This document shows positions 9,567-26,049 of a DNA stretch of 64,000 nucleotides, in pieces. This DNA is from Escherichia coli (lineage in GTDB: Bacteria > Pseudomonadota > Gammaproteobacteria > Enterobacterales > Enterobacteriaceae). Every line of letters starts with the position of its first letter. Within the stretch, counting starts at the first letter, position 1. The notes under the pieces are model-generated. The model worked only from the letters and a program-made list of their open reading frames with translations, had not been told where the DNA came from and searched no databases. A program made the translations under genes and the position numbers. The stretch lies in NCBI RefSeq assembly GCF_041886205.1, contig NZ_CP169030.1; one strand, given 5' to 3'.

Positions 9567-9604
9567 GGGGGAACCGCAGAATTCGGAAAAAATCGTACGC
9601 TAAG
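9567..9604. repeat. Left 38-bp terminal inverted repeat of the Tn1721-like transposon
   Basis: GGGGGAACCGCAGAATTCGGAAAAAATCGTACGCTAAG. Confidence 0.8.
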
Positions 9605-11620: not shown

Positions 11621-11625
11621 CGCCT
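11621..11625. repeat. 5-bp target-site duplication (CGCCT) flanking IRt of the integron
   Basis: CGCCT immediately outside IRt; the same pentamer lies immediately outside the second IRi at 22464-22468. Confidence 0.6.
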
Positions 11626-11650
11626 TGTCATTTTCAGAAGACGACTGCAC
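11626..11650. repeat. IRt (25-bp terminal inverted repeat at tni end of Tn402-like integron)
   Basis: TGTCATTTTCAGAAGACGACTGCAC. Confidence 0.8.
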
Positions 11651-11766: not shown

Positions 11767-13446
11767 ATGGCGACGGACACCCCACGGATTCCAGAACAAG
11801 GCGTGGCCACTCTGCCTGATGAGGCTTGGGAGCGTGCGCGCCGTCGTGCGGAGATCATCAGTCCGTTGGCGCAGTCGGAGACGGTCGGGCACGAAGCGGC
11901 CGATATGGCGGCTCAGGCGCTGGGCTTGTCTCGGCGCCAGGTATACGTTCTGATCCGGCGTGCCCGGCAAGGCAGCGGCCTCGTGACGGATCTGGTGCCC
12001 GGCCAGTCCGGTGGAGGTAAAGGTAAGGGGCGCTTGCCGGAACCGGTCGAGCGCGTCATCCACGAGCTACTGCAAAAGCGGTTCCTGACCAAGCAGAAGC
12101 GCAGCCTAGCGGCCTTTCACCGCGAAGTCACTCAGGTGTGCAAGGCTCAAAAACTGCGAGTGCCGGCGCGCAATACCGTGGCCTTACGGATCGCTAGCCT
12201 TGACCCGCGCAAGGTCATCCGCCGGCGGGAAGGCCAGGATGCCGCTCGTGACCTACAAGGTGTGGGCGGCGAGCCTCCTGCCGTGACCGCGCCGCTGGAG
12301 CAGGTGCAGATAGACCATACGGTCATCGACCTGATCGTGGTCGATGACCGCGACCGGCAACCTATTGGCCGCCCGTACCTGACCCTCGCCATCGACGTGT
12401 TCACCCGCTGCGTGCTCGGCATGGTCGTCACGCTGGAAGCGCCGTCTGCCGTTTCGGTTGGCCTGTGCCTCGTGCATGTCGCCTGCGACAAGCGCCCTTG
12501 GCTGGAAGGACTGAACGTGGAAATGGATTGGCAGATGAGCGGCAAGCCCTTGCTGCTCTACCTAGACAACGCGGCCGAGTTCAAGAGCGAGGCCCTGCGC
12601 CGGGGTTGCGAGCAGCATGGCATCCGGCTGGACTATCGCCCGCTGGGACAGCCGCACTATGGCGGCATCGTGGAACGGATCATCGGCACGGCGATGCAGA
12701 TGATTCACGACGAACTGCCGGGAACGACCTTCTCCAACCCTGACCAGCGCGGCGACTACGATTCCGAAAACAAGGCCGCCCTGACGCTGCGCGAGCTAGA
12801 GCGCTGGCTCACATTGGCGGTCGGCACCTACCACGGTTCGGTGCACAACGGCCTGCTCCAACCGCCGGCCGCGCGCTGGGCCGAGGCCGTGGCGCGTGTC
12901 GGCGTACCGGCCGTCGTCACACGCGCTACTTCGTTCCTGGTCGATTTTCTGCCGATCCTCCGGCGCACGCTGACCCGCACCGGCTTTGTCATCGACCACA
13001 TCCACTACTACGCCGATGCGCTCAAGCCGTGGATTGCGCGGCGTGAACGCTGGCCGTCCTTTCTGATCCGGCGCGATCCGCGCGACATCAGCCGTATCTG
13101 GGTCCTGGAACCGGAGGGACAGCATTACCTGGAAATTCCCTACCGTACCTTGTCGCATCCGGCTGTCACCCTCTGGGAACAACGGCAGGCGCTGGCGAAA
13201 CTGCGGCAGCAAGGGCGCGAACAGGTGGATGAGTCGGCGCTGTTCCGCATGATCGGCCAGATGCGTGAGATTGTGACCAGCGCGCAGAAGGCCACACGCA
13301 AGGCGCGGCGTGACGCGGATCGCCGCCAGCACCTCAAGACATCAGCTCGGCCGGACAAGCCCGTTCCGCCGGATACGGATATTGCCGACCCGCAGGCAGA
13401 CAACTTGCCACCCGCCAAACCGTTCGACCAGATTGAGGAGTGGTAG
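11767..13446 (+). CDS. tniA: TniA transposase (Tn402/Tn5053 family, DDE)
   Basis: 559 aa starting MATDTPRIPEQG; ORF-track start at 11731 is an upstream in-frame Met. Confidence 0.9.
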   Translation: MATDTPRIPEQGVATLPDEAWERARRRAEIISPLAQSETVGHEAADMAAQALGLSRRQVYVLIRRARQGSGLVTDLVPGQSGGGKGKGRLPEPVERVIHELLQKRFLTKQKRSLAAFHREVTQVCKAQKLRVPARNTVALRIASLDPRKVIRRREGQDAARDLQGVGGEPPAVTAPLEQVQIDHTVIDLIVVDDRDRQPIGRPYLTLAIDVFTRCVLGMVVTLEAPSAVSVGLCLVHVACDKRPWLEGLNVEMDWQMSGKPLLLYLDNAAEFKSEALRRGCEQHGIRLDYRPLGQPHYGGIVERIIGTAMQMIHDELPGTTFSNPDQRGDYDSENKAALTLRELERWLTLAVGTYHGSVHNGLLQPPAARWAEAVARVGVPAVVTRATSFLVDFLPILRRTLTRTGFVIDHIHYYADALKPWIARRERWPSFLIRRDPRDISRIWVLEPEGQHYLEIPYRTLSHPAVTLWEQRQALAKLRQQGREQVDESALFRMIGQMREIVTSAQKATRKARRDADRRQHLKTSARPDKPVPPDTDIADPQADNLPPAKPFDQIEEW

Positions 13447-13448
13447 CC

Positions 13449-14357
13449 GTGGACGAATATCCCATCATCGACCTGTCCCACCTGCTGCCGGCGGCCCAGG
13501 GCTTGGCCCGTCTTCCGGCGGACGAGCGCATCCAGCGCCTTCGCGCCGACCGCTGGATCGGCTATCCGCGCGCAGTCGAGGCGCTGAACCGGCTGGAAGC
13601 CCTTTATGCGTGGCCAAACAAGCAACGCATGCCCAACCTGCTGCTGGTTGGCCCGACCAACAATGGCAAGTCGATGATCGTCGAGAAGTTCCGCCGCACC
13701 CACCCGGCCAGCTCCGACGCCGACCAGGAGCACATCCCGGTGTTGGTCGTGCAGATGCCGTCCGAGCCGTCCGTGATCCGCTTCTACGTCGCGCTGCTCG
13801 CCGCGATGGGCGCGCCGCTGCGCCCACGCCCACGGTTGCCGGAAATGGAGCAACTGGCTCTGGCACTGCTGCGCAAGGTCGGCGTGCGCATGCTGGTGAT
13901 CGACGAGCTGCACAACGTGCTGGCCGGCAACAGCGTCAACCGCCGGGAATTCCTCAACCTGCTGCGCTTCCTCGGCAACGAACTGCGCATCCCGTTGGTT
14001 GGGGTAGGCACGCGCGACGCCTACCTAGCCATCCGCTCCGATGACCAGTTGGAAAATCGCTTCGAGCCGATGATGCTGCCGGTATGGGAGGCCAACGACG
14101 ATTGCTGCTCACTGCTGGCCAGCTTCGCCGCTTCGCTCCCGCTGCGCCGGCCTTCCCCAATTGCCACGCTGGACATGGCTCGCTACCTGCTCACACGCAG
14201 CGAGGGCACCATAGGGGAACTGGCGCACTTGCTGATGGCGGCGGCCATCGTCGCCGTGGAGAGCGGCGAGGAAGCGATCAACCATCGCACACTCAGCATG
14301 GCCGTTTACACCGGACCCAGCGAGCGGCGGCGGCAATTCGAGCGGGAACTGATGTGA
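13449..14357 (+). CDS. tniB: TniB NTP-binding transposition protein
   Basis: Walker A VGPTNNGKS, probable GTG start at 13449 giving MDEYPIIDL. Confidence 0.85.
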   Translation: MDEYPIIDLSHLLPAAQGLARLPADERIQRLRADRWIGYPRAVEALNRLEALYAWPNKQRMPNLLLVGPTNNGKSMIVEKFRRTHPASSDADQEHIPVLVVQMPSEPSVIRFYVALLAAMGAPLRPRPRLPEMEQLALALLRKVGVRMLVIDELHNVLAGNSVNRREFLNLLRFLGNELRIPLVGVGTRDAYLAIRSDDQLENRFEPMMLPVWEANDDCCSLLASFAASLPLRRPSPIATLDMARYLLTRSEGTIGELAHLLMAAAIVAVESGEEAINHRTLSMAVYTGPSERRRQFERELM

Positions 14358-15571
14358 AGCCTGCGCCGCGCTGGCCGCTGCATCCCGCCCCGAAAGAAGG
14401 CGAGGCGCTGTCCTCATGGCTCAACCGCGTGGCCCTTTGCTATCACATGGAGGAGCCCGACCTGCTGGAGCACGATCTTGGTCACGGCCAGGTCGATGAC
14501 CTGGACACCGCGCCACCACTCTCGCTGCTGGCGTTGCTTTCCCAGCGGAGCGGCATCGAGCTGGACCGGCTGCGCTGTATGAGTTTCGCCGGATGGGTGC
14601 CTTGGCTACTGGACAGCCTTGATGACCAGATTCCAGACGCCTTGGAAACCTATGCGTTTCAGCTCTCGGTGTTGCTGCCAAGACTCCGCCGTAAGACGCG
14701 ATCCATCACGAGCTGGCGTGCCTGGCTGCCCAGCCAGCCGATAAACCGCGCCTGTCCGCTCTGCCTGAGCGATCCGGAGAACCAAGCCGTACTGCTCGCG
14801 TGGAAGCTGCCCCTGATGCTGAGCTGCCCGCTGCATGGCTGCTGGCTGGAATCCTATTGGGGCGTGCCAGGGCGGTTTCTCGGCTGGGAGAACGCCGACG
14901 CCGAACCGCGCACCGCCAGCGACGCGATTGCGGCGATGGACCAGCGTACCTGGCAGGCACTGACAACCGGTCACGTGGAGCTGCCGCGCCGACGCATCCA
15001 CGCCGGATTGTGGTTTCGACTTCTTCGCACGCTGCTCGATGAGCTGAACACCCCGCTTTCCGCGTGCGGAACCTGCGCGGGGTATCCCCGCCAAGTCTGG
15101 GAAGGCTGCGGGCATCCGCTGCGTGCTGGGCAAAGTCTGTGGCGACCGTATGAAACCCTGAATCCGATAGTACGGTTACAGATGCTGGAGGCGGCGGCAA
15201 CGGCAATCAGCTTGATTGAGGTGAGGGACATCAGCCCGCCAGGCGAGCAGGCAAAGCTATTCTGGTCCGAGCCCCAAACCGGGTTCACCAGTGGCCTGCC
15301 GACGAAAGCGCCGAAGCCCGAGCCCATCAATCACTGGCAGCGTGCAGTCCAGGCCATCGACGAGGCCATCATTGAAGCGCGACACAACCCCGAGACGGCA
15401 CGCTCGCTGTTCGCGTTGGCTTCCTATGGTCGGCGCGATCCCGCTTCCTTGGAACGGTTGCGCGCCACCTTCGTGAAGGAAGGCATCCCGCCGGAATTTC
15501 TGTCACATTACCTGCCTGATGCACCCTTTGCATGTCTTAAACAAAATGACGGGTTAAGTGACAAATTTTGA
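14354..15571 (+). CDS. tniQ: TniQ transposition protein
   Basis: 405-aa frame starting at GTG overlapping tniB stop (VKPAPRWPLHPAPKEGEALSSWLNR); the ORF-track entry 14084-15571 is an upstream extension of this frame. Confidence 0.8.
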   Translation: MKPAPRWPLHPAPKEGEALSSWLNRVALCYHMEEPDLLEHDLGHGQVDDLDTAPPLSLLALLSQRSGIELDRLRCMSFAGWVPWLLDSLDDQIPDALETYAFQLSVLLPRLRRKTRSITSWRAWLPSQPINRACPLCLSDPENQAVLLAWKLPLMLSCPLHGCWLESYWGVPGRFLGWENADAEPRTASDAIAAMDQRTWQALTTGHVELPRRRIHAGLWFRLLRTLLDELNTPLSACGTCAGYPRQVWEGCGHPLRAGQSLWRPYETLNPIVRLQMLEAAATAISLIEVRDISPPGEQAKLFWSEPQTGFTSGLPTKAPKPEPINHWQRAVQAIDEAIIEARHNPETARSLFALASYGRRDPASLERLRATFVKEGIPPEFLSHYLPDAPFACLKQNDGLSDKF

Positions 15572-15617
15572 CGGATAGAGCTTTCCGGCTCACACTGTCA
15601 CATAATCGAACGTATAC

Positions 15618-16256
15618 GTGACGGGTGAAAAGGTGCTGATCGGCTACATGCGGGTATCGAAGGCGGACGGATCCCAGTCCACCAATTTGCAACGCGATGC
15701 GCTCATCGCCGCTGGTGTGAGCCTTGCGCACCTTTACGAGGATCTGGCCTCGGGCAGGCGCGATGATCGCCCAGGGTTGGCTGCTTGCCTGAAGGCGCTT
15801 CGTGAAGGGGACACGCTGATCGTGTGGAAGCTCGATCGGCTTGGCCGTGATCTGCGCCACCTGATCAACACCGTGCACGACCTAACTGCGCGTAGCGTGG
15901 GCCTGAAGGTCCTGACCGGTCACGGTGCGGCGGTCGACACGACGACTGCCGCCGGCAAGCTTGTGTTCGGTATTTTTGCCGCGCTGGCCGAGTTCGAGCG
16001 TGAGTTGATTTCCGAGCGAACAGTCGCTGGACTTATCTCGGCGCGCGCTCGCGGCAGGAAAGGGGGGCGCCCCTTCAAGATGACCGCCGCCAAGCTACGC
16101 CTGGCGATGGCCAGCATGGGGCAACCGGAAACCAAGGTGGGCGATCTCTGCGAAGAACTCGGGATTACCCGGCAGACGCTCTACCGGCACGTGTCGCCCA
16201 AGGGCGAACTGCGGCCAGACGGCGTAAAGCTGCTCTCCCTCGGTTCAGCCGCATAA
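15618..16256 (+). CDS. tniR: TniR/TniC serine resolvase of Tn402-like element
   Basis: Serine recombinase motifs (IGYMRVSKADGSQ; C-terminal HTH); exact start uncertain. Confidence 0.8.
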   Translation: MTGEKVLIGYMRVSKADGSQSTNLQRDALIAAGVSLAHLYEDLASGRRDDRPGLAACLKALREGDTLIVWKLDRLGRDLRHLINTVHDLTARSVGLKVLTGHGAAVDTTTAAGKLVFGIFAALAEFERELISERTVAGLISARARGRKGGRPFKMTAAKLRLAMASMGQPETKVGDLCEELGITRQTLYRHVSPKGELRPDGVKLLSLGSAA

Positions 16257-16353: not shown

Positions 16354-16448
16354 TTCAACGTTTGACGTGAGGGGCCGCCGTAGCGGCGAAGCCGCGAAGG
16401 GAACCCGCAAGCGCAGCTTGTGGGCGGTCCCTCTCGACGGAATGGTTA
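16354..16448 (-). other. Probable attC recombination site of the qac gene cassette
   Basis: Minus-strand inverse core ATCTAAC (plus 16441-16448) and core GTTGAAC (plus 16354-16360) bracket ~95 bp downstream of the qac stop; boundaries approximate. Confidence 0.4.
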
Positions 16449-16460
16449 GATGCGACCGTT

Positions 16461-16793
16461 TTAGTGAACACTTGCCTTAGATAGCAAGTTGAGCACAGCA
16501 ACGCCGCTGATAATGAAGCCGACACCAACAAATCCCCACATATCTAGTTTTTGACCATGCAAAACCCATGCAATCGCAGTGACCAAGACGATCCCGAGGC
16601 CCGACCAAACTGCGTAGGCGATTCCAACAGGAATCGATTTGAGTGTCAGCGACAGGAAATAAAAAGCAGCAGCGTATCCCGCTACGACGATAAAAGACGG
16701 TACTAACCTAGTAAAGCCCTCACTAGACTTGAGCGCAGAGGTTGCAATGACCTCAAAAATAATGGCCGTAGCCAGAAATAACCAATTTTTCAA
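16461..16793 (-). CDS. Small multidrug resistance (SMR) quaternary ammonium compound efflux protein, qacH/qacL-type gene cassette
   Basis: 110-aa frame [27 protein letters not shown]... with probable TTG start; the ORF-track entry 16461-17102 is an artefactual upstream extension through attI1. Confidence 0.75.
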
Positions 16794-16888
16794 AATATTT
16801 CTCCATGGAGTTCCGCGAAGAAATTTTAGGTTCGATTTAAGAAAAAAAACAGTCTTGTTGCTGGCCGAAATTTGTGCGCACAGCAAAG

Positions 16889-16965
16889 CATCTAACTTTG
16901 TTTTAGGGCGACTGCCCTGCTGCGTAACATCGTTGCTGCTCCATAACATCAAACATCGACCCACG
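16889..16965. other. attI1 site (copy 1) with cassette junction GTTAGATGC on minus strand
   Basis: Sequence CCCTAAAACAAAGTTAGATGC (minus strand) directly upstream of intI1; boundaries approximate. Confidence 0.6.
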
Positions 16966-17031
16966 GCGTAACGCGCTTGCTGCTTGGATGCCCGAGGCAT
17001 AGACTGTACAAAAAAACAGTCATAACAAGCC

Positions 17032-18045
17032 ATGAAAACCGCCACTGCGCCGTTACCACCGCTGCGTTCGGTCAAGGTTCTGGACCAGTTGCGTGAGCGC
17101 ATACGCTACTTGCATTACAGTTTACGAACCGAACAGGCTTATGTCCACTGGGTTCGTGCCTTCATCCGTTTCCACGGTGTGCGTCACCCGGCAACCTTGG
17201 GCAGCAGCGAAGTCGAGGCATTTCTGTCCTGGCTGGCGAACGAGCGCAAGGTTTCGGTCTCCACGCATCGTCAGGCATTGGCGGCCTTGCTGTTCTTCTA
17301 CGGCAAGGTGCTGTGCACGGATCTGCCCTGGCTTCAGGAGATCGGAAGACCTCGGCCGTCGCGGCGCTTGCCGGTGGTGCTGACCCCGGATGAAGTGGTT
17401 CGCATCCTCGGTTTTCTGGAAGGCGAGCATCGTTTGTTCGCCCAGCTTCTGTATGGAACGGGCATGCGGATCAGTGAGGGTTTGCAACTGCGGGTCAAGG
17501 ATCTGGATTTCGATCACGGCACGATCATCGTGCGGGAGGGCAAGGGCTCCAAGGATCGGGCCTTGATGTTACCCGAGAGCTTGGCACCCAGCCTGCGCGA
17601 GCAGCTGTCGCGTGCACGGGCATGGTGGCTGAAGGACCAGGCCGAGGGCCGCAGCGGCGTTGCGCTTCCCGACGCCCTTGAGCGGAAGTATCCGCGCGCC
17701 GGGCATTCCTGGCCGTGGTTCTGGGTTTTTGCGCAGCACACGCATTCGACCGATCCACGGAGCGGTGTCGTGCGTCGCCATCACATGTATGACCAGACCT
17801 TTCAGCGCGCCTTCAAACGTGCCGTAGAACAAGCAGGCATCACGAAGCCCGCCACACCGCACACCCTCCGCCACTCGTTCGCGACGGCCTTGCTCCGCAG
17901 CGGTTACGACATTCGAACCGTGCAGGATCTGCTCGGCCATTCCGACGTCTCTACGACGATGATTTACACGCATGTGCTGAAAGTTGGCGGTGCCGGAGTG
18001 CGCTCACCGCTTGATGCGCTGCCGCCCCTCACTAGTGAGAGGTAG
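17032..18045 (+). CDS. intI1: Class 1 integron integrase IntI1 (copy 1)
   Basis: 337-aa tyrosine recombinase [49 protein letters not shown]... Confidence 0.95.
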
Positions 18046-18222
18046 GGCAGCGCAAGTCAATCCTGGCGGATTCACTACCCCTGCGCGAAGGCCATCGGTG
18101 CCGCATCGAACGGCCGGTTGCGGAAAGTCCTCCCTGCGTCCGCTGATGGCCGGCAGCAGCCCGTCGTTGCCTGATGGATCCAACCCCTCCGCTGCTATAG
18201 TGCAGTCGGCTTCTGACGTTCA

Positions 18223-18247
18223 GTGCAGCCGTCTTCTGAAAACGACA
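18223..18247. repeat. IRi (25-bp inverted repeat at intI1 end), copy 1, internal
   Basis: GTGCAGCCGTCTTCTGAAAACGACA; followed by TTTGA rather than the CGCCT seen outside IRt. Confidence 0.8.
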
Positions 18248-18329
18248 TTTGAACCGGGAACCTTCCCTTTTTGGCTAGGCGTGAAACAATGGTCATTTTC
18301 CCTATACCCAAAATGACCAGGAGGCCCGC

Positions 18330-18428
18330 ATGAAAGTCGCACGCATCTACCTGCGCGTGAGCACGGAGGAACAAGACCTAAGCCGGCAGGATGCCATCGT
18401 GGAGAGCTTAAATAAGACCGTCCCGTAA
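18330..18428 (+). pseudogene. Serine recombinase (resolvase) N-terminal fragment, truncated after ~27 codons by the 88-bp repeat
   Basis: MKVARIYLRVSTEEQDLSRQDAIVES matches the catalytic-serine N-terminus of resolvases; frame then runs into repeat sequence and stops. Confidence 0.5.
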
Positions 18429-18495
18429 ATTTCAGCCGAATCCGACAAAAAGGCGTGAAGATTTCCTTTAAATAGAGAGACCGAAGGTCATCCTT
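18408..18495. repeat. 88-bp direct repeat, copy A, flanking the tet(M) segment
   Basis: TTAAATAAGACCGTCCCGTAAATTTCAGCCGAATCCGACAAAAAGGCGTGAAGATTTCCTTTAAATAGAGAGACCGAAGGTCATCCTT, identical at 20999-21086. Confidence 0.85.
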
Positions 18496-18648
18496 TTCCT
18501 AAAAAAGGGGGGGGCCATGGTTCCAAGATGTAAAATCGAGGGCTAATTCAGGCTATACTTGAACTATCCTTAATGGAATCTTTAGCCAGCGGTATCAACG
18601 AAGCAAGAAACATCGAAGACTAATTAAAAGAATCCATACATAACGGAA

Positions 18649-18693
18649 AGAGCCGATAAAATGAGATTGTATTAATCTCATTTTATCGGCTCT
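18649..18693. terminator. Long perfect hairpin (19-bp stem) at the 3' end of the small ORF downstream of tet(M)
   Basis: AGAGCCGATAAAATGAGATT-gtat-TAATCTCATTTTATCGGCTCT. Confidence 0.45.
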
Positions 18694-18850
18694 GCGTCTT
18701 TGCGTCTGGCTCTGTAATCGCAGTTACTTTGAACTGCTTTATTTCAATTAAATTTTCTTGTCTGCATTTCGGACAATAGAGGGGGAATTTTTTTAATTCA
18801 GTATCTTCCCTTATCTTTAATCGTGTTTTATTTCCACATACAGGACACAA
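18683..18850 (-). CDS. Small Cys-rich zinc-ribbon-like protein (~55 aa), Tn916 orf6-like, downstream of tet(M)
   Basis: Minus-strand frame CPVCGNKTRLKIREDTELKKFPLYCPKCRQENLIEIKQFKVTAITEPDAKTQSR with TTG/GTG start; below ORF-track length cutoff. Confidence 0.4.
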   Translation of the reverse strand: MCPVCGNKTRLKIREDTELKKFPLYCPKCRQENLIEIKQFKVTAITEPDAKTQSR

Positions 18851-18968
18851 TATCCACTTGTAGTTTATAATAACTATCTCCTCCTTTACACTTTAATTCA
18901 AATCTTTATTAAAAAATATTTCATCTTATTTAACAAGAAACCATATTTATATAACAACATAAAATACA

Positions 18969-20888
18969 CTAAGTTATTTTATTGAACATATATCGTACTT
19001 TATCTATCCGACTATTTGGACGACGGGGCTGGCAAACAGGTTCACCGGTAGTAACATGGTACCCTTTTAACTCTGTTAAACAAACACTACGTCCATTTGT
19101 AAAGAAAGTTAAATCACTACGATATTCTTGAATACACCGAGCAGGGATTTCTCCACTAAGAATGACCTCATTATTTTTCAATTGAGTGTCTACGATGTTC
19201 GCACAATATTTAGGAGCATCGTTGTATGCTCGTGAAAGATATTCCTGTGGCGCATAAATTTTAAAACTAAGATATGGCTCTAACAATTCTGTTCCAGCTT
19301 TTTTTAAGACTTGTTCCAATACAATAGGAGCAAGCATCCGAAAATCTGCTGGGGTACTAACAGGGCTATAGTATAAGCCATACTTAAAACAGATTTTACA
19401 GTCCGTCACATTCCAACCATACAATCCTTGTTCACAGCCATAGCGTATCCCTTCCATAACTGCATTTTGAAATGATTGATTTAAGTATCCAAGAGAAACC
19501 GAGCTCTCATACTGCATTCCACTTCCCAACGGAAGCGGTGATACAGATAAACCAATGGAAGCCCAGAAAGGATTTGGCGGCACTTCGATGTGAATGGTAT
19601 ATTCTGCATTTTTTAACGGTCTCTCCATATAAATGACTGTAGGCTCTTTTAGTTCTATCTCCACATGATACTTTTCTTGCAACAGTGCACTAATCACTTC
19701 CATTTGTACTTTCCCTAAGAAAGAAAGTATAATTTCATGTGTCGTAGAATCCACGTAATATCGTAGAAGCGGATCACTATCTGAGATTTCCAAAAGGGCA
19801 TCAAGCAACATTTCTCTCTGTTCAGGTTTACTCGGTTCAACAGTTGTTTGTAGTAGAGGGTGCGGATTTTCAATCTTTTTTCTCTGTGGCAATAGTTTTG
19901 TATCTCCAAGAACACTATTTAACTTCAAAAACTCATTTTGCAAAATAACAATTTCCCCGGAATAAGCCTTATCGATTTTACATAATTCACCATTTATTGA
20001 AGTATACATTTCTGTAATTTTTATTTTTTCCTTTTCCGATATTCTAACCGAATCTCGCAAATGCAGTACGCCACTATAAAGACGTATATATGCAAGACGT
20101 TGTCTTTTTTTTGTATATTCAATTTTGAAAACATTTCCGCAAAGTTCAGACTGACCTCGATGTGTTGATGAATAAAATTTATTCGTAATCACTTCTATAA
20201 GGTTATCAATCCCTATATTGTTTTTTGCACTTCCATGATAAAGAGGGAACAGAGAACAATTCTGAAATCTTATGCTTTCCTCTTGTTCGAGTTCCAATGC
20301 TTCTAATGATTTACCGGACATATATTTCTCTAAAAGGTCATCGTTTCCCTCTATTACCGTATCCCATTGTTCAGATTCGGTAAAGTTCGTCACACACATA
20401 TTAGGATACAGTTCTACCTTCTGTTTGATTACAATTTCGGCAGAAAGTTTCTCTTTAATATCCTGATAAACCGTTGATAAATCAATTCCATTTTGGTCAA
20501 TCTTATTGATAAAAAAGATTGTGGGAATCCCCATTTTCCTAAGTGCATGAAATAATATACGAGTTTGTGCTTGTACGCCATCTTTTGCAGAAATCAGTAG
20601 AATTGCCCCATCTAAAACTGATAATGAACGATATACTTCTGCTAAGAAATCCATATGTCCTGGCGTGTCTATGATGTTCACCTTCGTATTTTCCCACTGA
20701 AAAGAGGTTATTCCTGTCTGAATTGTAATTCCTCTCTGACGTTCTAAAAGCGTATTATCCGTCCTCGTTGTACCTTTGTCCACGCTTCCTAATTCTGTAA
20801 TCGCTCCACTGTTATATAATAAGCTTTCTGTTAAGGTAGTTTTTCCCGCATCAACATGAGCTAAAACTCCAATATTAATAATTTTCAT
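18969..20888 (-). CDS. tet(M): Tetracycline resistance ribosomal protection protein Tet(M)
   Basis: 639 aa starting [30 protein letters not shown] (translational GTPase motifs); the ORF-track frame begins 5 codons upstream. Confidence 0.95.
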
Positions 20889-20903
20889 GTGATTTTCCTC
20901 CAT

Positions 20904-20990
20904 TCAAAAGCCCAAAAGGGCATAAAAATCCCAGTGATAAATACTCTTATCACTGGGATTTTTATGCATAACCATAGGCATACAAAGCAT
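20904..20990 (-). CDS. tet(M) leader peptide (28 aa) of the transcriptional attenuator
   Basis: MLCMPMVMHKNPSDKSIYHWDFYALLGF immediately upstream of tet(M), as in Tn916. Confidence 0.7.
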   Translation of the reverse strand: MLCMPMVMHKNPSDKSIYHWDFYALLGF

Positions 20991-20998
20991 ACAGATAT

Positions 20999-21086
20999 TT
21001 AAATAAGACCGTCCCGTAAATTTCAGCCGAATCCGACAAAAAGGCGTGAAGATTTCCTTTAAATAGAGAGACCGAAGGTCATCCTT
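20999..21086. repeat. 88-bp direct repeat, copy B, flanking the tet(M) segment
   Basis: Identical to 18408-18495, same orientation. Confidence 0.85.
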
Positions 21087-21134
21087 GAAGAAGGAGTCCT
21101 CGGTGAGATTCAGAATGCCGAACACCGTCACCCT
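21087..21134 (-). pseudogene. sul1: sul1 5' fragment (codons ~2-17 only), joined on one side to the 88-bp repeat and on the other to truncated attI1
   Basis: Minus strand reads (V)TVFGILNLTEDSFF, the N-terminus of Sul1 dihydropteroate synthase, lacking its ATG and everything after codon ~17. Confidence 0.7.
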
Positions 21135-21200
21135 GCTGCGTAACATCGTTGCTGCTCCATAACATCAAACATCGACCCACGGCGTAACGCGCTTGCTGCT
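21133..21200. other. attI1 (copy 2), truncated: lacks the GTTAGATGC crossover end
   Basis: Sequence identical to copy 1 from CCCTGCTGCGTAACATCG onward, but the cassette-proximal ~25 bp are replaced by the sul1 fragment. Confidence 0.6.
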
Positions 21201-21247
21201 TGGATGCCCGAGGCATAGACTGTACAAAAAAACAGTCATAACAAGCC

Positions 21248-22261
21248 ATGAAAACCGCCACTGCGCCGTTACCACCGCTGCGTTCGGTCAAGGTTCTGGA
21301 CCAGTTGCGTGAGCGCATACGCTACTTGCATTACAGCTTACGAACCGAACAGGCTTATGTCCACTGGGTTCGTGCCTTCATCCGTTTCCACGGTGTGCGT
21401 CACCCGGCAACCTTGGGCAGCAGCGAAGTCGAGGCATTTCTGTCCTGGCTGGCGAACGAGCGCAAGGTTTCGGTCTCCACGCATCGTCAGGCATTGGCGG
21501 CCTTGCTGTTCTTCTACGGCAAGGTGCTGTGCACGGATCTGCCCTGGCTTCAGGAGATCGGAAGACCTCGGCCGTCGCGGCGCTTGCCGGTGGTGCTGAC
21601 CCCGGATGAAGTGGTTCGCATCCTCGGTTTTCTGGAAGGCGAGCATCGTTTGTTCGCCCAGCTTCTGTATGGAACGGGCATGCGGATCAGTGAGGGTTTG
21701 CAACTGCGGGTCAAGGATCTGGATTTCGATCACGGCACGATCATCGTGCGGGAGGGCAAGGGCTCCAAGGATCGGGCCTTGATGTTACCCGAGAGCTTGG
21801 CACCCAGCCTGCGCGAGCAGCTGTCGCGTGCACGGGCATGGTGGCTGAAGGACCAGGCCGAGGGCCGCAGCGGCGTTGCGCTTCCCGACGCCCTTGAGCG
21901 GAAGTATCCGCGCGCCGGGCATTCCTGGCCGTGGTTCTGGGTTTTTGCGCAGCACACGCATTCGACCGATCCACGGAGCGGTGTCGTGCGTCGCCATCAC
22001 ATGTATGACCAGACCTTTCAGCGCGCCTTCAAACGTGCCGTAGAACAAGCAGGCATCACGAAGCCCGCCACACCGCACACCCTCCGCCACTCGTTCGCGA
22101 CGGCCTTGCTCCGCAGCGGTTACGACATTCGAACCGTGCAGGATCTGCTCGGCCATTCCGACGTCTCTACGACGATGATTTACACGCATGTGCTGAAAGT
22201 TGGCGGTGCCGGAGTGCGCTCACCGCTTGATGCGCTGCCGCCCCTCACTAGTGAGAGGTAG
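21248..22261 (+). CDS. intI1: Class 1 integron integrase IntI1 (copy 2, identical protein)
   Basis: Identical 337-aa translation to copy 1; one silent nucleotide difference noted. Confidence 0.95.
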
Positions 22262-22438
22262 GGCAGCGCAAGTCAATCCTGGCGGATTCACTACCCCTGC
22301 GCGAAGGCCATCGGTGCCGCATCGAACGGCCGGTTGCGGAAAGTCCTCCCTGCGTCCGCTGATGGCCGGCAGCAGCCCGTCGTTGCCTGATGGATCCAAC
22401 CCCTCCGCTGCTATAGTGCAGTCGGCTTCTGACGTTCA

Positions 22439-22463
22439 GTGCAGCCGTCTTCTGAAAACGACA
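22439..22463. repeat. IRi, copy 2 (outer end of integron), followed by CGCCT target duplication
   Basis: GTGCAGCCGTCTTCTGAAAACGACA then CGCCT at 22464-22468. Confidence 0.8.
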
Positions 22464-22485
22464 CGCCTTCAACCAAGGAGACATC

Positions 22486-23046
22486 GTGCAGGGGCACCGC
22501 ATCGGCTACGTCCGGGTCAGCAGCTTTGACCAGAACCCGGAACGCCAGCTGGAACAAACCCAGGTGAGCAAGGTGTTCACCGACAAGGCATCGGGCAAGG
22601 ACACCCAGCGCCCCCAGCTCGAAGCGCTGCTGAGCTTCGTCCGCGAAGGCGATACAGTGGTGGTGCACAGCATGGATCGGCTGGCCCGCAACCTCGATGA
22701 CCTGCGTCGCTTGGTACAGAAGCTGACTCAGCGCGGCGTGCGCATCGAGTTCCTGAAGGAGGGCCTGGTGTTCACTGGCGAGGACTCGCCGATGGCCAAC
22801 CTGATGCTGTCGGTGATGGGGGCCTTCGCTGAGTTCGAGCGCGCCCTGATCCGCGAGCGGCAGCGTGAGGGCATCGCCTTGGCCAAGCAGCGTGGCGCGT
22901 ACCGGGGCCGCAAGAAAGCCCTGTCCGATGAGCAGGCTGCTACCCTGCGGCAGCGAGCGACGGCCGGCGAGCCCAAGGCGCAGCTTGCCCGCGAGTTCAA
23001 CATCAGCCGGGAAACCCTCTACCAGTACCTCCGCACGGACGACTGA
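22486..23046 (+). CDS. tnpR: TnpR resolvase (Tn21/Tn1721 subfamily)
   Basis: 186-aa serine recombinase MQGHRIGYVRVSSFDQNPERQ... Confidence 0.9.
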   Translation: MQGHRIGYVRVSSFDQNPERQLEQTQVSKVFTDKASGKDTQRPQLEALLSFVREGDTVVVHSMDRLARNLDDLRRLVQKLTQRGVRIEFLKEGLVFTGEDSPMANLMLSVMGAFAEFERALIRERQREGIALAKQRGAYRGRKKALSDEQAATLRQRATAGEPKAQLAREFNISRETLYQYLRTDD

Positions 23047-23049
23047 CAC

Positions 23050-26016
23050 ATGCCGCGTCGCTTGATCCTCTCGGCCACGGAGCGGGACACCCTGCTTGCG
23101 CTGCCGGAAAGCCAGGATGACCTGATCCGCTACTACACCTTCAACGACTCCGACCTGTCGCTGATCCGCCAGCGACGCGGCGACGCCAACCGCCTCGGCT
23201 TCGCCGTGCAGCTCTGCCTGCTGCGCTACCCCGGTTACGCGCTGGGAACCGACAGCGAGCTGCCCGAGCCGGTCATCCTGTGGGTGGCGAAGCAAGTCCA
23301 GGCCGAGCCGGCGAGCTGGGCAAAGTACGGCGAGCGCGACGTGACCCGTCGCGAGCATGCCCAGGAACTGCGCACCTACCTGCAACTGGCCCCGTTCGGC
23401 CTGTCCGACTTCCGCGCCCTGGTGCGCGAGCTAACCGAGCTGGCCCAGCAGACCGACAAAGGCTTGCTGCTGGCCGGTCAGGCCCTGGAGAGCCTACGGC
23501 AGAAACGACGCATCCTGCCGGCGCTGAGCGTGATTGACCGGGCCTGCTCGGAAGCCATTGCGCGAGCCAATCGGCGGGTCTACCGCGCCCTGGTCGAACC
23601 ACTCACGGACTCGCATCGGGCCAAGCTGGACGAGCTGTTGAAGCTCAAGGCCGGCAGCAGCATCACCTGGTTGACCTGGCTGCGCCAGGCACCGCTGAAA
23701 CCCAACTCTCGGCACATGCTGGAACACATCGAGCGGCTGAAGACATTTCAGTTGGTGGACTTGCCCGAAGGCCTGGGCCGGCACATCCACCAGAACCGCC
23801 TGCTCAAGCTGGCCCGCGAGGGTGGGCAGATGACGCCCAAAGACCTCGGTAAGTTCGAGCCGCAGCGCCGCTACGCGACCCTGGCCGCCGTGGTGCTGGA
23901 GAGCACCGCGACCGTGATCGATGAGCTGGTCGATCTGCATGACCGCATCCTGGTCAAGCTGTTCAGCGGCGCGAAGCACAAGCATCAGCAGCAGTTCCAG
24001 AAGCAGGGCAAGGCGATCAACGACAAGGTGCGCCTGTACTCCAGGATCGGCCAGGCGCTGCTGGAAGCGAAGGAAAGCGGCAGCGACCCCTATGCCGCCA
24101 TCGAGGCGGTGATTCCCTGGGACGAGTTCACCGAGAGCGTCAGCGAGGCCGAGCTGCTGGCCCGGCCGGAAGGCTTCGACCACCTGCACCTGGTCGGCGA
24201 GAACTTCGCCACCCTGCGCCGTTACACGCCGGCCTTGCTGGAGGTGCTGGAACTGCGCGCCGCGCCGGCCGCGCAAGGCGTGCTGGCAGCCGTGCAGACC
24301 CTGCGTGAGATGAACGCCGACAACCTGCGCAAGGTGCCGGCCGATGCACCCACGGCCTTCATCAAGCCGCGCTGGAAGCCGCTGGTGATCACCCCGGAAG
24401 GCCTCGACCGGAAATTCTACGAAATCTGCGCCCTGTCCGAGCTGAAGAACGCCCTGCGCTCCGGCGACATCTGGGTCAAGGGCTCGCGGCAGTTCCGCGA
24501 CTTCGACGACTACCTGCTGCCGGCCGAGAAGTTCGCCGCACTCAAGCGCGAGCAGGCCCTGCCCCTGGCGATCAACCCGAACAGCGACCAGTACCTGGAA
24601 GAGCGTTTGCAGCTGCTGGACGAGCAGTTGGCCACCGTCACCCGCCTGGCCAAGGACAACGAGCTGCCCGATGCCATCCTCACCGAGTCAGGGCTGAAAA
24701 TCACCCCGCTGGATGCGGCGGTGCCGGATCGGGCGCAGGCGCTGATCGACCAAACCAGCCAGTTACTGCCGCGCATCAAGATCACCGAACTGCTGATGGA
24801 CGTGGACGACTGGACGGGCTTCAGCCGCCACTTCACCCACTTGAAGGACGGGGCCGAGGCCAAAGACAGGACGTTGCTGCTGTCCGCAATCCTCGGTGAT
24901 GCGATCAACCTCGGGCTGACCAAGATGGCCGAGTCGAGCCCCGGCCTGACCTACGCCAAGCTGTCCTGGCTGCAAGCCTGGCACATCCGCGACGAAACCT
25001 ATTCGGCGGCCTTGGCCGAGCTGGTCAACCACCAGTATCGCCACGCCTTTGCCGCCCACTGGGGCGACGGCACGACCTCATCCTCCGATGGCCAGCGCTT
25101 CCGCGCGGGTGGCCGGGGCGAGAGCACCGGGCACGTCAACCCGAAGTACGGTAGCGAGCCGGGACGGCTGTTCTATACCCATATCTCCGACCAGTACGCG
25201 CCGTTCAGCACCCGCGTGGTGAATGTCGGCGTCCGCGATTCCACCTATGTGCTCGACGGCCTGCTGTACCACGAGTCCGACCTGCGGATCGAGGAGCACT
25301 ACACCGACACGGCCGGCTTCACCGATCACGTCTTTGCCCTGATGCACCTGCTAGGCTTCCGCTTCGCGCCGCGCATCCGCGACCTCGGCGAAACCAAGCT
25401 GTACGTGCCGCAGGGCGTGCAAGCCTACCCGACGTTGCGCCCGCTGATCGGCGGCACCCTGAACATCAAGCACGTGCGTGCCCACTGGGACGACATCCTG
25501 CGCCTGGCCAGCTCGATCAAGCAGGGCACCGTCACCGCCTCGCTGATGCTGCGCAAGCTCGGCAGCTACCCGCGCCAGAACGGACTGGCCGTGGCCCTGC
25601 GCGAGCTGGGCCGGATCGAGCGCACGCTGTTCATCCTGGACTGGCTGCAAAGTGTTGAACTGCGCCGCCGCGTGCATGCCGGCCTGAACAAAGGTGAGGC
25701 GCGCAACTCGCTGGCCAGGGCGGTGTTCTTCAACCGCCTTGGGGAAATCAGGGATCGGAGCTTCGAGCAGCAGCGCTACCGGGCCAGCGGCCTCAACCTG
25801 GTGACGGCGGCTATCGTGCTGTGGAACACGGTGTACCTGGAACGCGCCACCCAGGGGTTGGTCGAGGCCGGCAAGCCGGTGGACGGCGAGCTGCTGCAAT
25901 TCCTGTCGCCGCTGGGCTGGGAGCACATCAACCTAACCGGCGATTACGTCTGGCGGCAGAGCCGCAGACTGGAAGACGGGAAGTTTCGGCCCTTACGGAT
26001 GCCCGGAAAACCTTAG
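23050..26016 (+). CDS. tnpA: TnpA transposase (Tn3 family, Tn21/Tn1721 subfamily)
   Basis: 988-aa ORF ending inside the terminal inverted repeat. Confidence 0.9.
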
Positions 26017-26049
26017 CGTACGATTTTTTCCGAATTCTGCGGGCTCCCC
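26012..26049. repeat. Right 38-bp terminal inverted repeat of the Tn1721-like transposon
   Basis: Reverse complement reads GGGGAGCCCGCAGAATTCGGAAAAAATCGTACGCTAAG. Confidence 0.8.

Follow-up and report, generated by a model that had tools for sequence, protein, structure and literature searches.

A tet(M) unit between direct repeats of the integrase end of a class 1 integron in Escherichia coli, and its likely entry by homologous recombination

The window analysed in this study, a stretch of 64,000 nucleotides from Escherichia coli (contig NZ_CP169030.1 of assembly GCF_041886205.1), carries a complete Tn402-like class 1 integron within the res region of a Tn1721-type transposon. The end of this integron that holds the integrase gene intI1 and the terminal inverted repeat IRi is present twice, with the tetracycline-resistance gene tet(M) lying between the two copies. 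According to the annotation of AP024116 and CP063715, the order is Tn1721 orfI, the outer terminal inverted repeat IRo, tniA, tniB, tniQ, tniR, qacG2, intI1, inner IRi, tet(M), intI1, outer IRi, and Tn1721 tnpR and tnpA. Over this stretch the identity to both of these IncFIA/FIC plasmids, AP024116 (human, Japan) and CP063715 (veal, USA), is 100%.

The repeat was delimited by base-by-base extension from a seed at 16915/21131, and the features that belong to it are the following:

16915-18247, plus strand: repeat copy 1 (R1), comprising part of the attachment site attI1, the integron promoter Pc, intI1 (17032-18045) and the inner IRi (18223-18247); repeat extension, translation, IRi match, NCBIfam.
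21131-22463, plus strand: repeat copy 2, comprising a truncated attI1 that lacks the crossover site, Pc, intI1 (21248-22261) and the outer IRi (22439-22463); repeat extension, IRi match, translation.
16894-16958, minus strand, limits approximate: what we take, by inspection, to be the complete attI1 of the inner integron copy; the shared 5'-conserved segment (5'-CS) begins at 16893 in integrons with other cassettes.
17119-17147, minus strand: Pc of copy 1, TGGACA-17-TAAACT (PcH1), facing qacG2, with 17121 as the fourth base of the -10 box; exact hexamers.
21335-21363, minus strand: Pc of copy 2, TGGACA-17-TAAGCT (PcW), pointing toward tet(M); exact hexamers.

Each copy measures 1333 bp, both have the same orientation, and the offset between them is 4216 bp. 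A first-pass annotation, made from the sequence alone, had placed the copies at 16914-18247 and 21128-22463; the repeat itself was correctly recognised, and its left ends are displaced by one to three bases from the exact positions, 16915 and 21131. The only mismatch is T at 17121 versus C at 21337, which falls in codon 30 of intI1 (AGT versus AGC) and is silent, as had been noted. The two open reading frames (ORFs) consequently encode an identical IntI1 of 337 amino acids, with a score of 799 bits against the NCBIfam integron integrase equivalog (cut-off 435), and each copy is closed by a perfect IRi of 25 bp. A repeat of 1.3 kb at 99.9% identity cannot be a product of chance. The same annotation had described the repeat as running from attI1 to IRi, which holds from intI1 to IRi and not for attI1 as a whole. 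The anatomy of attI1, including the position of its crossover site, is well established, and the outer copy stops 23 bp short of the cassette boundary, so that the crossover point is gone; an attI1 with its crossover core beside a first cassette, here qacG2, is found in the inner copy and not in the outer one. The 5'-CS of the window is identical to that of thousands of plasmids.

The offset defines a unit of 4216 bp, made of one intI1-IRi block followed by five segments, the last of which is fused inside attI1:

18248-18407, plus strand: B, a relic of res/parA type, 160 bp, with the upstream region and the first 26 codons of a serine recombinase gene.
18408-18560, plus strand: X, the terminal 153 bp (oriIS end) of an ISCR/IS91-like element, whose transposase gene is absent from the window.
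18561-20998, minus strand: E, a Tn916-type fragment of 2438 bp with a small KTR ORF (18683-18850), tet(M) (18972-20888) and its leader peptide (20904-20990).
20999-21086, plus strand: X', identical (100%) to the first 88 bp of X and thus in direct repeat with 18408-18495.
21087-21130, minus strand: F, 44 bp remaining of sul1 (nt ~4-47), which match the start of an annotated sul1 exactly.

Both gene fragments that the first-pass annotation had recognised in this segment, a piece of a resolvase gene after the inner IRi and a piece of sul1, were borne out. The recombinase in B, with its start codon at 18330, reads MKVARIYLRVSTEEQ... and contains the catalytic motif YLRVSTEEQ. The junction of IRi with about 115 bp of B occurs in 213 plasmids, pRSB105 included, which points to an old insertion of an integron beside a plasmid resolvase gene, while the full 160 bp of B, as well as the B|X junction, occur only in plasmids with the tet(M) unit. 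Tet(M) scores 1515 bits against the NCBIfam model (cut-off 1420) and is preceded by a leader peptide of 28 codons. Homology to other enterobacterial tet(M) regions ends at 18561 and at 20998/20999; E is only a fragment, and it has neither int/xis nor the conjugation genes and transposon ends of the Tn916 family. IS26 is absent from the unit and its surroundings in the window, and between 11.6 and 22.5 kb there is no ISCR1 and no 3'-conserved segment (3'-CS) other than the 44 bp of sul1.

The integrase itself might be proposed to have put tet(M) in place as an irregular cassette, by recombining attI1 with some secondary site. Such sites are known to be used by IntI1 at low frequency, and tet(M) is found on the cassette strand downstream of Pc. 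However, neither end of the insert lies at a G|TT crossover point, and the junction 23 bp inside attI1 removes the crossover site, which argues that the left edge of the repeat is not an integrase product. Furthermore, tet(M) is flanked by no attC-like site, its boundaries being X, the sul1 relic and the break inside attI1, and the insert brings with it an entire second intI1-IRi, a duplication not expected of recombination by the integrase. Such a route is therefore extremely improbable, and tet(M) is cassette-like only in its position and strand.

The same arrangement is shared by many replicons. At least 17 complete plasmids of PLSDB cover at least 80% of positions 16400-23100, the inner part is also present in 8 complete RefSeq E. 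coli genomes, and the 88-bp X' marker was found in 19 PLSDB plasmids, twice in all except one of these (18/19). Since the 1.3-kb repeats are longer than short reads, it is a legitimate concern in general that one intI1 could have been expanded to two by mis-assembly, and long reads with a single copy had been named beforehand as the result that would overturn the arrangement. Such an artefact has a negligible probability: the plasmids and genomes just mentioned were assembled independently and closed, one plasmid with PacBio reads, the copies within one plasmid differ by the single-nucleotide polymorphism in Pc or by a GGG insertion in the promoter P2, and each copy has unique sequence on one of its sides.

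Across these carriers the interior of the unit is constant and its surroundings vary. The six internal junctions (R1|B, B|X, X|E, E|X', X'|F and F|attI1) are identical in 11 of the 11 double-copy records that were fetched, which indicates that the unit arose once. Seven different cassette arrays stand ahead of it, namely qacG2; dfrA1-aadA1-3'-CS; aadB-aadA2-cmlA6-aadA15; dfrA17-aadA5; aadA12-lnu(F); dfrA16-blaCARB-2-aadA2-cmlA1; and dfrA1-aadA1-qacL-sul3. Beyond the outer IRi three flanks were observed: CGCCT with Tn1721 tnpR, ATGGAGGTGG... and CCATGTGCAAACG..., all three apparently in res regions; judging by the adjacent annotation, we take the second to be that of Tn21 (the site of In2) and the third to be of Tn1696 type. 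Each outer site is common to at least three carrier plasmids with different arrays, and among the outer-IRi flanks of the fetched records no carrier at a novel insertion site with a new duplication was found, a pattern that argues for import into resident integrons rather than for transposition of the composite. The promoter alleles vary as well. The inner/outer combination is PcH1/PcW in the window, AP024116 and CP063715, PcW/PcH1 in 3 plasmids and PcH1/PcH1 in 4, and further combinations are PcW+P2/PcH1, PcW/PcW+P2 and PcW/PcW; such mosaics are as expected from crossovers at different points, or from gene conversion, between the 1.3-kb blocks.

Some records depart from this common form. On a river-water E. 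coli plasmid with the qacG2-tet(M) arrangement (NZ_CP195947.1; L032, 5584-6528), the KTR ORF is interrupted by IS1B and the inner intI1 contains an internal stop; a RefSeq record with two KTR ORFs, which had been considered as a duplication, was rejected as such, being an IS1B insertion. In pDAM_4 (NZ_JBQXPD010000005.1; L019, 3700-6010), a widespread proteobacterial ABC-ATPase gene abuts X at nt 3, in the place of the inner intI1-IRi-B, and IS26 interrupts the outer intI1; this represents further decay of the structure. Three records with a single intI1 (H19, H21 and H22) were considered as ancestors and ruled out, as they carry other tet(M) lineages that are merely near integrons.

The host of the unit is known in an empty form. 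Plasmid MW390542 (IncX1) carries an otherwise identical Tn1721::Tn402-qacG2 with the same IRi|CGCCT|tnpR junction, a single intI1 and no tet(M). In the window, the corresponding features of the integron and its host transposon are:

9567-9604, plus strand: left terminal inverted repeat (38 bp) of the host transposon, which is of Tn1722/Tn1721 type; pattern match to the consensus, with 3 mismatches.
11621-11625, no strand: CGCCT, left copy of the 5-bp target-site duplication; read from the sequence.
11626-11650, plus strand: IRo, the outer 25-bp inverted repeat of the Tn402-like integron; exact match to TGTCATTTTCAGAAGACGACTGCAC.
11767-16256, plus strand: complete tni module, tniA, tniB, tniQ and tniR; RefSeq annotation of the identical stretch in AP024116, and ORFs.
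16461-16793, minus strand: qacG2 gene cassette, the only true cassette present; NCBIfam QacG2, 234 bits (cut-off 220).
22464-22468, no strand: CGCCT, right copy of the target-site duplication; read from the sequence.
22486-26049, plus strand: tnpR and tnpA of the Tn1722-type transposon, together with its right 38-bp inverted repeat (26012-26049); Tn3-family transposase in NCBIfam at 1289 bits, above the cut-off; exact repeat match; annotated TnAs1.

The left terminal repeat is adjoined by a methyl-accepting chemotaxis gene (orfI), as annotated in AP024116, and TniR matches serine-recombinase models. All the hallmarks of a class 1 integron of Tn402 type are thus in place, that is, intI1, attI1 (in the inner copy), Pc within intI1, and IRo and IRi together with the tni module and the 5-bp duplication. 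As the first-pass annotation had stated, CGCCT follows the outer IRi only, and 22464-22468 matches 11621-11625.

It could be argued from these boundaries that everything from IRo to the outer IRi, tet(M) included, entered Tn1722 together as a single Tn402-like transposon, the duplication then being older than the insertion. In favour of this, CGCCT is found on the far side of both IRo and the outer IRi, and no part of the tni module is missing. However, the same site with the same CGCCT is found without the unit in MW390542 and with a different integron body, dfrA1-aadA1-3'-CS, in CP026936, and a carrier at a novel site is what the flanks failed to reveal. Recombination after the insertion is the simpler account of a shared site with and without the unit, and transposition of the composite is quite unlikely.

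The duplication might also have originated in situ, through transposition of a second Tn402-type integron beside the first and deletions that left its intI1-IRi end with tet(M) in between. Elements of the Tn402 family target res regions, and the inner IRi abuts a resolvase-gene relic, so that an event of this kind did happen once in the ancestry of the unit. Nevertheless, that relic differs from the Tn1721 tnpR/res beside the outer IRi, and there is neither a second IRo nor a second target duplication. With an identical unit and identical junctions at three outer sites, and an empty site besides, independent formation in each of them is not credible, and a local origin is very unlikely.

The reading that is likely, and that we hold with considerable confidence from these comparisons, is that the unit had one origin elsewhere and then spread by homologous recombination in the 5'-CS of resident integrons. 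Entry by homologous recombination within intI1 had been suggested by the first-pass annotation, and the suggestion finds support in the empty form, in the junctions that stay identical across arrays and sites, and in the mosaic Pc/P2 alleles. According to the proposed mechanism, a Tn402-like integron would first have inserted in the res region of Tn1722/Tn1721, and the unit would have been added later by RecA-type homologous recombination within attI1-intI1-IRi. Because the unit carries its own copy of intI1-IRi, a single crossover between a circular form of it and the resident integron would duplicate the 1333-bp block and leave tet(M) between the copies. Alternatively, unequal exchange with a donor plasmid already carrying the duplication would give the same product, and sequence cannot separate the two. 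In either way, the unit appears to have entered at least seven different integrons through recombination in the 5'-CS.

As for the sources of the unit, its parts suggest an integron that landed beside a plasmid resolvase gene, a tet(M) fragment of Tn916 placed between end-pieces of X, and a sul1 relic fused into attI1. If an integron had suffered a deletion from sul1 nt ~4 into attI1, and were followed by IRi|B|X-E-X, it would provide the substrate, and a single illegitimate join of X nt 88 to sul1 nt 47 would then circularise exactly 4216 bp. The anatomy, the junctions that all carriers share, the empty site, the several contexts and the mosaic alleles are directly seen in the sequences; the circle, the dependence on RecA, the expression from Pc and the order of assembly are what we infer from such comparisons. 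Once established, the direct repeats would allow precise loss or re-excision of the unit, and, with the tni module intact, IRo together with either IRi could define a transposable segment.

Several points weigh against this account of recombination between 5'-CS copies. The case is comparative, as no circular form and no recombination event has been observed, and no progenitor with a single copy of the junctions of the unit was found. The first-pass annotation had predicted that the repeats would make the region prone to deletion and amplification; the former agrees with the established biology of RecA, by which direct repeats are deleted, and fits the empty form, whereas the latter did not hold, since amplified arrays are absent from PLSDB, with never more than two X' markers per plasmid. 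The window has PcH1 in the inner copy and PcW in the outer copy, and the resident allele, judged by the empty form, is PcW; a single crossover would have to fall in the first 206 of the 1333 bp, or else a second exchange or gene conversion would be required, which places the allele pattern of the window in mild tension with a single crossover. In addition, the variant in MT499884 (L003, 13195-13262) would not be produced by simple integration of a circle. Here R1-B-X-E-X'-F is joined to 19 bp of the IS26 terminal repeat, followed by mef(B)-delta, sul3, the rest of a sul3-type array, attI1 and intI1. In the attI1 and IS26-relic junctions alike, F stops at one and the same nucleotide (within 2 nt), and no one-step path leads from one of these junctions to the other through the shared 9-bp CAAAGTTAG.

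The silent difference between the repeats has a place of its own in this structure, as it is a polymorphism of the Pc -10 box (17119-17124 and 21335-21340). Pc variants were assigned by the definitions of Jové et al. (PMC2791841, Table 1), and by the ratios reported there PcH1 is about 5-6 times stronger than PcW, both encoding IntI1 R32_H39 (PMC2791841). The promoter scan did not flag Pc in the window, given that PcW and PcH1 fall below its consensus threshold, and the identification was hence made by exact hexamers; P2 is inactive in both copies, being the form with a 14-bp spacer. Only 110 bp are kept upstream of the start codon of tet(M), and the leader-peptide gene starts 8 bp from the E|X' break. 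The tet(M) promoter of Tn916 lies more than 200 bp upstream and should be missing here. On the other hand, tet(M) is on the cassette strand, with the -10 box of the outer Pc about 345 bp upstream of the start of the leader peptide, and a transcript begun at this promoter would cross the truncated attI1, F and X' before it reached the leader and tet(M). It is therefore suggested that tet(M), as a pseudo-cassette, probably depends on the Pc of the outer copy, and that the outer intI1 block serves both as a homology arm and as a probable source of the promoter. In most carriers the outer promoter is PcH1; the window has the weaker PcW.

The segments that enclose the tet(M) fragment, X and X', lead to another type of mobile element. 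In a scan with exact 22-mers, X was found in assemblies labelled Bacteriovorax, Oligoflexia, Flavobacterium and Saprospiraceae and at the ends of metagenome contigs; both termini of X are conserved, the flanks differ, and several direct copies per contig are often present. It also occurs beside a tet(X)-estT-rteC-delta segment in the ISCR2-rich Acinetobacter plasmid pABF9692 and in a Flavobacterium assembly. At four loci, X is preceded by a gene of 462 amino acids and then 44 bp. The product of this gene matches the Pfam families Y2_Tnp (3.5e-30) and Zn_Tnp_IS91 (5.8e-18; L024, 1723-3111), and it is 38% identical to the transposase of ISCR2 (ISVsa3); it falls outside the curated clades, with 116 bits against a cut-off of 125 for NCBIfam IS91 and 302 against 925 for ISCR clade Ia. 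An element of 1790 bp with the same two ends and different flanks was delimited in 3 loci (L024, 1519-3308), and X corresponds to its last 153 bp. The terminus of the element, TAATTCAGGCTATAC, resembles the oriIS end of ISCR2, TTATTCTTCCTATAC. The parent element thus has the features by which the ISCR/IS91 group is recognised: an HUH transposase of Y2 type with an N-terminal zinc-binding domain, and a defined terminus downstream of the transposase gene, with no inverted repeats and with variable DNA beyond it. The transposase has relatives in records named as Bacteriovorax, Halobacteriovorax and Oligoflexia, for which the binning of metagenome-assembled genomes may be unreliable. From these comparisons, X is concluded to be what remains of the oriIS end of an ISCR-like element not described before; tet(M) lies between two such remnants.

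The inner boundary of X is constant. Solo copies have at least 10 different left flanks and all start at the same base. In a homologue whose transposase is 87% identical, the matching, diverged tail continues across this boundary. The sequence just inside the boundary of X, CCTAATTTCGGTC, is loosely like the true end (12/20 positions, by eye), and one idea is that the rolling-circle transposase could stop or start internally at this point. Other identities of X were considered and rejected. As a structured RNA, it folded no better than shuffled sequences (z = +0.8 and +2.4 on the two strands) and had no Rfam match at the gathering score; as a miniature inverted-repeat transposable element, an attC-like site or an element of IS200/IS605 type, it lacks terminal inverted repeats, a conserved target and core sites. 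No copy of X was found in viral contigs. Beside X in environmental contigs (L025, 224-2175, and L027-L031) there are genes for a macrolide phosphotransferase like Mph(E)/(G), a chloramphenicol phosphotransferase like CPT and nucleotidyltransferase-like ORFs; all of these score below the curated cut-offs and are thus regarded as distant relatives, not as known resistance alleles.

A broader scenario, speculative and rather doubtful on present comparisons, is that the tet(M) fragment was captured and packaged by an ISCR-like rolling-circle element native to predatory Bacteriovoracaceae/Oligoflexia, that X itself may be a mobile or recombinogenic module, and that the 4.2-kb unit would act as a transposase-free, homology-guided cassette able to use the 5'-CS and Pc of any class 1 integron.

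Among known systems, the closest parallels are the complex class 1 integrons with ISCR1 and In104. The former also hold a non-cassette resistance gene by the oriIS end of an ISCR-family element, between two copies of a conserved segment. In the accepted model, attributed to Toleman and colleagues, a circular intermediate is reportedly rescued by homologous recombination with a resident integron. In the ISCR1 integrons, however, it is the 3'-CS that is duplicated, while here it is the 5'-CS, with no ISCR1 and with a remnant of 153 + 88 bp from a different element. In104 of Salmonella genomic island 1 likewise has duplicated integron segments around non-cassette genes (floR and tet(G)), and homologous recombination between its duplicates is said to generate variants. 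The second attI1 of In104 has a working cassette and its second intI1 is truncated and fused, whereas in the window the second intI1 is complete and its attI1 truncated and unusable. The ISCR2-tet(X) units are similar in that an ISCR-family element, as direct copies or as relics, lies on both sides of the resistance gene; unlike them, X derives from another ISCR-like element, that of the Bacteriovorax/Oligoflexia assemblies, and only the piece of its oriIS end is present.

The Tn402/Tn5053 res-hunters share with the present integron IRo and IRi, tniABQR, the 5-bp duplication and insertion beside resolvase genes. This placement is seen twice here, with the outer IRi by Tn1721 tnpR and the inner IRi by the parA-type relic; transposition of this family explains the positions of the integron ends, not the duplication itself. 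Other tet(M) genes derived from Tn916 have been described on plasmids of E. coli and Salmonella in Tn6539, Tn6709, Tn6942 and Tn7124, which are thought to move by recombination rather than transposition (PMC11539080). Those structures are bounded by IS26 and contain a longer Tn916 segment, about 96-99% identical, in which relics of ctp and int are present. The unit in the window has no IS26, is bounded by 5'-CS repeats and X, and belongs to a different lineage. Although the carrier sequences have been public for years, no description of the unit was found in the open literature (subscription journals lay outside this search), and tet(M) receives no more than passing mention in the papers on carrier plasmids. 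In this variant of complex class 1 integrons, the novelty lies chiefly in the derivation of X from an ISCR-like element rather than in the duplication.

A large share of resistance plasmids carry class 1 integrons, and a unit whose entry requires no more than homology to the integrase end could reach any of these integrons. In this way, a Gram-positive ribosomal-protection gene would have moved without a transposase and without being a cassette, probably borrowing the promoter of the integron. This would explain the occurrence of one tet(M) allele on plasmids of several types, IncF, IncC, IncHI2 and IncY among them, in E. coli and Salmonella isolated from cattle, pigs, food, water and people. 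There are practical consequences as well: intI1, where it serves as a pollution marker, is counted twice in carrier strains, short-read assemblies will collapse the region, and cassette mapping by polymerase chain reaction from the 5'-CS can mislead. The X relic, for its part, provides a concrete starting point for tracing how the tet(M) fragment passed from the environment into Enterobacteriaceae.

With regard to the plasmid that harbours the window, identity to AP024116 is at least 99.8% at 5.6-32 kb and only 86-95% over the F-type transfer region (38700-61200), which suggests a related but mosaic IncF plasmid. The host transposon has the form of Tn1722, in which the tetR-tet(A)-pecM segment of AP024116 and CP063715 is missing (26012-26049 versus L001, 29652-33349), as expected from recombination between the repeats of the Tn1721 tnpA end; tet(M) is consequently the only tetracycline-resistance gene within the host transposon.

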